From Escherichia coli (GTDB lineage: Bacteria; Pseudomonadota; Gammaproteobacteria; Enterobacterales; Enterobacteriaceae): a stretch of DNA of 64,000 nucleotides. A program made the position numbers and the translations under genes. The DNA lies in assembly GCF_003334305.1 (NCBI RefSeq), contig NZ_QOWS01000009.1. The stretch is one strand, 5' to 3'. A model generated the notes under the pieces. The model was not told the origin of the DNA. It was given only the letters and a program-made list of their open reading frames with translations, and did no database searches. Below, in pieces: positions 47,681 to 48,411 of the stretch. The first letter of the stretch is position 1. Each line of letters starts with the position of its first letter.

Positions 47681-48316
47681 TCTTCTGAATCACCGGGCGA
47701 AAAAATATAACTGAGTTACAAATAAGTACCAGTCGAATGAGTATTGTATTAAGAATTTTTGAGTATCGCTGATACAACCAGAAAGCAATGCTAGCGCAAT
47801 ATTATAGGGCCAGCAATTGAGATTATTAGCAAAAGCATGTTAAGAATTAATTACCGAATTTATATATTAATTATAGTAAGGCAATGAGCTATTTTTGATA
47901 GTAAAAATAAAACAAGTTGATTTGATATATTAAATGAACAAATTAATCTTGATGGCAGTCTGATTATTGGTGAAGTTTATAGTCAGTTTTTTTCGCCAGC
48001 GGTTAAAGAAATAGAATAGTCGTATAAAAAAGGGTGTTCTGGGGCGAGTAAAACAACATCTTCACCTTAATGGCGATACAGTTGGCTGAGAGTCAGCAGG
48101 GGGGCAAATCACCTGCAAATAAACACGGCGCATACTGGCGTGAATATCGCGGATGCGTTCGAGGACAGAAGAACCGACAGGCGGATTCTTCAGCCGCTCA
48201 TCGTCCATCACAAAACCTTAGACCAGGTATTCCTGAAGCCGATTGAATATTGAGCAGTAGAAAATATCTGGATTGACAGTATTACAAGGGGTTGGAGAAC
48301 GTCAGGAGAGGCATTT

Positions 48317-48411
48317 TGGCGGAAGATCACAGGAGTCGAACCTGCCCGGGACCGCTGGCGGCCCCAACTGGATTTGAAGTCCAGCCGCCTCACCGGAGAC
48401 GACGATCTTCC
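48317..48411 (-). tRNA. selC: tRNA-Sec (selenocysteine, anticodon UCA)
   Basis: Reverse complement reads GGAAGATCGTCGTCTCCGGTGAGGCGGCTGGACTTCAAATCCAGTTGGGGCCGCCAGCGGTCCCGGGCAGGTTCGACTCCTGTGATCTTCCGCCA (95 nt, long variable arm); perfect TATAAT upstream on the minus strand near 48447-48452. Confidence 0.9.

Follow-up and report, generated by a model that had tools for sequence, protein, structure and literature searches.

The stretch of Escherichia coli DNA analysed here (64,000 nucleotides, called the window below) carries yicI-yicJ, selC, setC, yicL and nlpA in this order and runs reverse to the usual map orientation. ARAGORN finds a single tRNA gene in the whole window, that of tRNA-Sec, selC. 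Between 47600 and 48500 the window differs from the MG1655-derived RefSeq record NZ_CP097883.1 by one SNP (47830, C here and T there), which marks it as a K-12-like E. coli. Since five diverged E. coli also carry C at this position, the T of NZ_CP097883.1 seems to be the derived state; position 47830 lies within the promoter island described below, just upstream of the putative -35 element for the TATAAT at 47801-47806.

The genes selC and setC are separated by 636 bp (47681-48316), the distance already given approximately in the initial annotation of the locus. The features of this gap and its surroundings are as follows.

46415-48301, minus strand: variable block comprising the rhuM fragment, the AT-rich tract and setC, bounded by selC plus 15 nt on one side and by a point 29 nt upstream of the yicL ATG on the other
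46496-47680, minus strand: setC, a SET-family MFS sugar efflux transporter of 394 aa, intact (ORF list)
47694-48024, minus strand: AT-rich 'promoter island' upstream of setC, with an apparently constrained core at about 47694-47979
47801-47806, minus strand: perfect TATAAT about 120 nt 5' of the setC start codon, a candidate -10 element beneath the RpoS SELEX peak
47870-47875, minus strand: perfect TATAAT, a candidate -10 element read from the sequence
47980-48070, minus strand: rapidly changing segment that joins the rhuM fragment to the AT core
48062-48211, minus strand: 49-codon ORF in the rhuM segment, present in K-12
48071-48238, minus strand: rhuM pseudogene, an internal fragment of 168 bp (tblastn, PF13310, PGAP)
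48239-48301, minus strand: 63 nt that vary fast and separate the rhuM fragment from the conserved flank of selC
48302-48316, minus strand: 15 nt 3' of selC, kept in all listed E. coli classes and in E. fergusonii
48317-48340, minus strand: last 21-24 nt of selC, the direct-repeat core of integrase-type islands, single copy in the window
48317-48411, minus strand: selC, tRNA-Sec with anticodon TCA, intact (ARAGORN and Rfam RF01852)

The two halves of the spacer differ sharply in composition, as had been described: in 100-nt windows the GC content is 40-56% over 48050-48300, next to selC, and 19-34% over 47700-47999, the extremely AT-rich distal part. At 29.9% GC, where the window-wide mean is 52.1%, the tract 47694-48024 as a whole stands 29th from the bottom among 63,670 overlapping 331-bp windows, the lowest being 47701-48031. 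The second-lowest-GC 331-bp stretch of the window (31%) lies at 40553-40883 and covers the 5' end of adeD together with the divergent adeD-adeQ intergenic region; adeD is known as a cryptic gene under H-NS silencing.

The selC gene is intact, in accordance with the initial annotation. Its match to Rfam family RF01852 scores 83.8 bits, for a gathering score of 47, and covers the model completely (positions 1-91). Five aligned E. coli sequences carrying selC have no variable site in it, and an Rfam E-value scan of 47000-49000 returned no ncRNA other than tRNA-Sec.

The locus had also been judged apparently unoccupied by any island, and two findings had been named that would speak against this: a repeated piece of the selC 3' end and the remains of an integrase. 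Both were searched for and neither was found. In the whole 64 kb, at up to 25% mismatch, the last 16-30 nt of selC have no second copy beyond chance 16-mers; for tails of at least 20 nt, the fuzzy search of the window returned selC itself alone. The repeat-bearing region of E. coli DS566-2 matches the selC-setC gap no better than shuffled sequences do. Queried with a tyrosine recombinase from a selC island (ATCC 25922), the 64-kb window gives no tblastn match (best E 3.5), and the ORF list holds no ORF longer than 61 aa in the gap.

A comparison with other genomes places this junction in context. In 2,490 of 5,426 complete E. coli genomes the 3' end of selC is contiguous with the K-12-type flank, exactly as here. 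About 1,100 further genomes of this set, such as CE10, have the same setC-side flank but parted from selC; their setC-side piece ends at 48337-48340, which means that it starts with a copy of the last 21-24 nt of selC. The length of these copies agrees with the selC repeats of 24 bp (PMC6174562) and, in enteroaggregative strain EAEC 042, of 21 bp (PMC7058095) that have been reported. In genomes with LEE-type or other islands the homology breaks at 48301/48302, 15 nt beyond selC, and the match runs only from 48302 onward. The variable region thus begins at 48301, and the homology with E. fergusonii stops at 48302. Strains with an occupied selC, which the initial annotation had proposed for comparison, therefore show either the setC-side flank behind a 21-24-nt selC copy or a break at 48301/48302.

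Because selC is intact, no direct repeat and no integrase accompany it, and the junction is contiguous, the site is free of any present integrase-borne island. It is the same site as the unoccupied selC of K-12, which serves as the reference 'empty' site for LEE, PAI-I536, SHI-2, retronphage phiR73 and EAEC selC-A: both have an intact selC, one copy of its 3' end and no integrase, and occupied strains resume with the same flank after the 21-24-nt repeat. Between selC and the core flank we found neither a direct-repeat copy nor an integrase or other mobility gene. An empty site without accessory DNA should have core genes directly beside the tRNA gene, and this is not the case here: the block 46415-48301 is itself accessory, and the conserved flank is yicL. 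The K-12 'empty' flank already holds older island debris and an accessory gene, a fact that is usually left unsaid.

The debris is a remnant of rhuM, 78 bp from selC, and its presence corrects the earlier statement that the gap contains no cargo gene. The intact 345-aa RhuM of DS566-2 aligns by tblastn with 48238..48071 on the minus strand over residues 121-187 (61% identity, E 6e-19). The aligned segment has an in-frame stop and an 8-codon deletion and lacks both ends of the gene. Its conceptual peptide matches positions 52-98 of the 252 of Pfam PF13310 (Virulence_RhuM), with an i-Evalue of 4.1e-11. RefSeq annotation by PGAP likewise places a 'RhuM family protein' pseudogene in the gap of K-12 and its relatives, mapping to 48077-48238, with an internal stop and both termini missing. 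Profile match, disrupted and truncated frame and, in six genomes, neutral evolution together identify it as a pseudogene of the RhuM family. Strand and position relative to selC are the same as for the family members rhuM of SPI-3 and rhuM of DS566-2 and E. fergusonii, and the conserved RhuM core motif (GFVMDDERLKNPPVGSS) is kept. Relative to the intact protein, about 56 of 345 codons are left, with the stop and the 8-codon deletion among them. rhuM has been reported in SPI-3 of S. Typhimurium 14028, an island whose insertion site is tRNA-selC (PMC3680342).

The fragment does not derive from the rhuM found intact at this site today. At the DNA level it shares only about 75% identity with the intact gene of E. 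coli DS566-2 and E. fergusonii, and the rhuM sequences of the 5,426 E. coli genomes form two classes only, with at least 94.6% or about 75% identity to the K-12 fragment and no intermediates; we conclude that it comes from a different, unsampled rhuM allele. An intact parent was found neither among its database relatives nor in the 5,426 genomes. The closest database relatives are all E. coli fragments of at most 101 aa. Of the whole spacer, the rhuM piece alone has matches outside E. coli; they lie in rhuM-like genes, in Klebsiella, Proteus, Salmonella and Enterobacter.

On either side of the fragment lies DNA of no recognizable parentage. The 48239-48301 segment has no homology to intact rhuM loci, and the roughly 90 nt at 47980-48070 have no match to them. 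We also considered whether the AT tract and the flanking sequence could be degraded rhuM or ORF165, and rejected this: in Smith-Waterman alignments to the loci of DS566-2 and E. fergusonii they score no higher than shuffles, with the rhuM fragment as positive control scoring 138-143.

The block as a whole is a variable element of the species. Of the 5,426 complete genomes, 3,676 carry the AT tract and 3,674 the K-12-type rhuM fragment. About 32% of these E. coli lack the block, as do the E. fergusonii, Salmonella and Citrobacter loci examined. The homology that the window shares with DS566-2 and with E. fergusonii is interrupted between two breakpoints, 46414/46415 and 48301/48302. In 843 of the genomes the K-12 fragment is replaced by an intact-type rhuM whose DNA is 60-80% identical to it (about 75% among the examples listed). 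In DS566-2, selC is followed by rhuM, a degenerate selC 3' copy, an ORF of 165 aa and yicL, with no setC; E. fergusonii has the same rhuM-ORF165 arrangement, also with no setC, and in both the intact 345-aa rhuM stands directly 3' of selC. The selC contexts of other species were reached via YicL orthologs. In Salmonella, SPI-3 adjoins yicL directly through its mgtB-mgtC end, and setC is absent. One Citrobacter has genes for DUF6680, HicB, SymE, SulP and LysR proteins between selC and yicL and no setC, and in Yokenella yicL does not lie near selC, which makes that locus uninformative.

Several further observations concern these alternative loci. The module of rhuM, direct repeat and ORF165 is about 95-98% identical between DS566-2 (locus L002, 4193-6471) and E. 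fergusonii (locus L090, 5690-7971), whereas the adjacent yicL of E. coli and E. fergusonii is only about 77.5% identical in DNA sequence. This difference suggests that the module was exchanged between species, probably by way of the conserved selC side. Near the 5' end of rhuM (L002 6100-6400, about 300 nt) the identity falls to 50-79%, and the gene looks mosaic. The degenerate selC 3' copy of DS566-2 (L002 5258-5285) is 87.5% identical over 32 nt and follows the rhuM stop by about 110 nt, so that the intact rhuM looks like a 1.2-kb mini-islet with att-like repeats on both sides and no integrase. As for yicL itself (45462-46385), its pS reaches 0.2 in one strain (L085) and is 0.03-0.09 in the others; given this spread and the low identity to E. 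fergusonii, the history of this core flank seems unusually deep or shaped by recombination. In the O157:H7 strain TR01, 36 nt of the block (48266-48301, 97% identical) are kept at a separate chromosomal place, which may be the far junction of LEE; the rhuM fragment and the AT tract are apparently missing from this strain.

The gene at the other end of the spacer, setC, is functional. Over the window and five diverged E. coli carrying the block, aligned as six genomes, its pN is 0.0019 and its pS 0.054, and the ratio of about 0.035 points to strong purifying selection. SetC scores 643 bits against TIGR00899, whose cut-off is 522, and with 669 bits it comes just under the cut-off of the SetB equivalog model (693). 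It belongs by these scores with SetA and SetB, and unlike them it is accessory: about 32% of E. coli lack it, and it lies inside the variable block between selC and yicL. In 100,044 species representatives SetC has no relative that is more than 72% identical; the top matches, at 72%, are probably SetA or SetB orthologs, which is why the SetC scan yielded no selC contexts. Deletion of setC has been reported to raise intracellular arabinose, and its over-expression to be toxic (PMC3429515). The latter effect gives a rationale for control of the gene by H-NS.

The same six-genome alignment separates the two halves of the spacer by rate. The selC-proximal half (47980-48316) diverges by 0.055, equal to the synonymous divergence of setC, and has strain-specific indels and frameshifts. 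Its fastest parts are the segments flanking the rhuM fragment, with mean pairwise divergences of 7.2% over 48239-48316 and 8.7%, with indels, over 48000-48070. The AT core (47694-47979, 286 bp) diverges by 0.017, about one third of the setC pS. AT-rich DNA might mutate somewhat more slowly, by an estimated 14% or so on assumed rather than computed mutation rates, and such an effect of composition would be too small for a threefold difference.

The neutral rate and the frameshifts, which vary from strain to strain, identify the proximal half as the scar: this half, of normal GC, is what remains of cargo that the selC hotspot carried before. The initial annotation had offered two readings for the AT-rich half, an integration scar or a promoter or H-NS-bound region for setC. 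The first has to be reassigned to the other half, the AT half being about three times slower than synonymous sites and unmatched elsewhere. The second agrees with published data (PMC3661553, PMC5493296), and the AT half looks like constrained regulatory DNA of setC.

For the conversion of published coordinates we anchored on the setC ATG, which we take to be position 3834976 in U00096.2; the other entries of the promoter-island table used here presumably fit the same numbering. The catalogue of 78 K-12 'promoter islands' by Panyukov and Ozoline (2013) has an entry 3834632_331, between selC(+) and setC(+) (PMC3661553), and this entry converts to 47694-48024, exactly the AT tract. Promoter islands are extremely dense in potential start points; they bind RNA polymerase and yet are nearly silent (PMC3661553). 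Island 3834632_331 has the H-NS code 'A', meaning that it was bound in all the ChIP studies compared, by Grainger, Kahramanoglou and Oshima (PMC3661553, Table 1), and it is marked in column C as tied to a predicted foreign gene after Nakamura et al. (PMC3661553). Genomic SELEX also placed two peaks in the selC>setC spacer, one for the RpoS holoenzyme at 3834856 with an intensity of 22.6, and a weaker one, in the heat-shock sigma section, at 3834954 with an intensity of 3.4 (PMC5493296). They convert to about 47800, inside the AT tract, and to about 47702, respectively.

The sequence itself has the features of the class. The interval 47694-48024 contains 12 -10-like hexamers, for a window-wide mean of 1.5, and 12 are reached by 7 of 1,274 sampled windows. 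It is AT-rich with dense promoter-like elements and tied to a horizontally acquired gene. Two of the hexamers are the perfect TATAAT at 47801-47806 and 47870-47875, both invariant in the six E. coli; as promoter elements they are candidates, named from their motif and conservation. A scan with the sigma-70 consensus found no promoter on the setC strand and no enrichment, its one promoter-like site being on the opposite strand. The scan demands a good -35, which excludes the two TATAAT sites, and it is uninformative for this reason.

Promoter islands are a subset of the H-NS-silenced AT-rich regions upstream of horizontally acquired genes. The AT tract shares with the other islands of K-12 its AT richness, its dense -10-like hexamers, the binding of H-NS and the association with a foreign gene, and does not differ from them in kind; the low divergence of its core is what the present analysis adds. 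The tract is single-copy in E. coli (3,705 places in 3,676 genomes, median one per genome) and has no match outside this species or in the plasmid and phage collections. It is bracketed by 30-nt inverted repeats, 47683-47712 and 47981-48010, that are only 70% complementary. A MITE-like element was considered and rejected, given the weak repeats, the single copy and the lack of a match outside E. coli.

We therefore read the locus as an empty selC site followed by a composite spacer, one half rhuM debris and the other the control region of setC, and give this reading a probability of about 0.8. The selC-proximal half (about 47980-48301) would be dead DNA, a rhuM fragment flanked by unrecognizable junk and drifting neutrally. 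The AT half (about 47694-47979, with published limits 47694-48024) would be the upstream control region of setC. According to the literature, RNA polymerase binds at its cluster of -10-like elements, as RpoS holoenzyme in vitro, and H-NS covers the tract in vivo. Coating by H-NS would hold setC, horizontally acquired and toxic if over-expressed, at a low conditional level. We infer the silencing of setC by H-NS from the AT tract, and likewise which -10 element serves setC; setC, the AT tract and the rhuM fragment would have arrived, or been rearranged, as an old selC islet. The anatomy, homologies, population spread and rates come from the present analysis, and the binding of H-NS and RNA polymerase and the setC phenotypes from the literature.

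It is possible to go further, and we do so tentatively, at slightly under even odds. The 'empty' selC of K-12 would then not be ancestral: the 1.9-kb block would be a domesticated islet remnant standing in place of the rhuM-ORF165 module that E. fergusonii and about 16% of E. coli still have. Purifying selection, to which the rate of about one third of the neutral one would be due, would maintain the AT island as a dedicated H-NS silencer of a transporter whose over-expression is toxic. Were this so, the locus would give direct evolutionary evidence for promoter islands as selected features, not by-products of composition.

The strongest of the competing explanations, though an unlikely one, takes the AT tract as a passive, AT-biased flank brought in with setC, to which H-NS and polymerase bind by virtue of composition, the real promoter being single and ordinary. 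The -10-like hexamers are indeed expected in DNA of 70% AT, and both the near-silence reported for promoter islands and the sigma-70 scan without enrichment fit this picture. Against it, divergence is reduced over the entire 286-bp core and not at one promoter alone, albeit in a small sample. That the AT tract itself was left behind by an earlier integration and excision, as island DNA with no present function, is improbable. The tract is AT-rich like much horizontal DNA, sits in a known island hotspot and is missing together with setC from about 32% of E. coli; yet its rate is about one third of the synonymous one, next to a rhuM half that evolves neutrally, and it is unmatched in intact rhuM loci, at other E. 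coli sites, in plasmids and in phages. It also binds H-NS and RNA polymerase according to the literature and lies directly upstream of a gene under purifying selection, and clean excision would restore the att site and leave no tract.

Very improbable, finally, is a function of the rhuM fragment, as a small protein from the 49-codon ORF (48062-48211, minus strand) or in selC 3' processing or termination: the ORF exists in K-12, gene callers name it 'cytoplasmic protein' in many genomes and a weak terminator-like hairpin lies at 48076-48062, but the frame is broken differently from strain to strain (PGAP 'frameshifted' and 'internal stop', with indels), the divergence equals the synonymous rate and about 1,750 genomes are without the segment.

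The region is ordinary and its main elements are already in the annotation or the literature; what is added here is the correct assignment of the scar and regulatory halves, the contrast in rates and the population picture. The K-12 selC-setC interval is used as the empty reference in strain typing and island hunting, and it carries rhuM debris and an accessory gene. An 'unoccupied' selC is accordingly one that lacks a present integrase-borne island; the word does not stand for untouched core genome. The two-rate spacer is a small, clean example of how regulatory DNA can be separated from pseudogene junk, and the rate contrast lends modest support to selection on promoter islands.

Three observations on individual database records were made along the way. 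In the K-12-like strain BKQ37E (NZ_CP170328.1) an IS1A lies inside the selC-setC spacer, whose match is in two pieces spanning 1,678 bp. The plasmid collection includes several chromosome-sized records. Two 'Campylobacter phage' records, MG065686.1 and MG065691.1, contain the full-length selC-setC spacer with 99.8% identity, most likely through contamination or mis-assembly.
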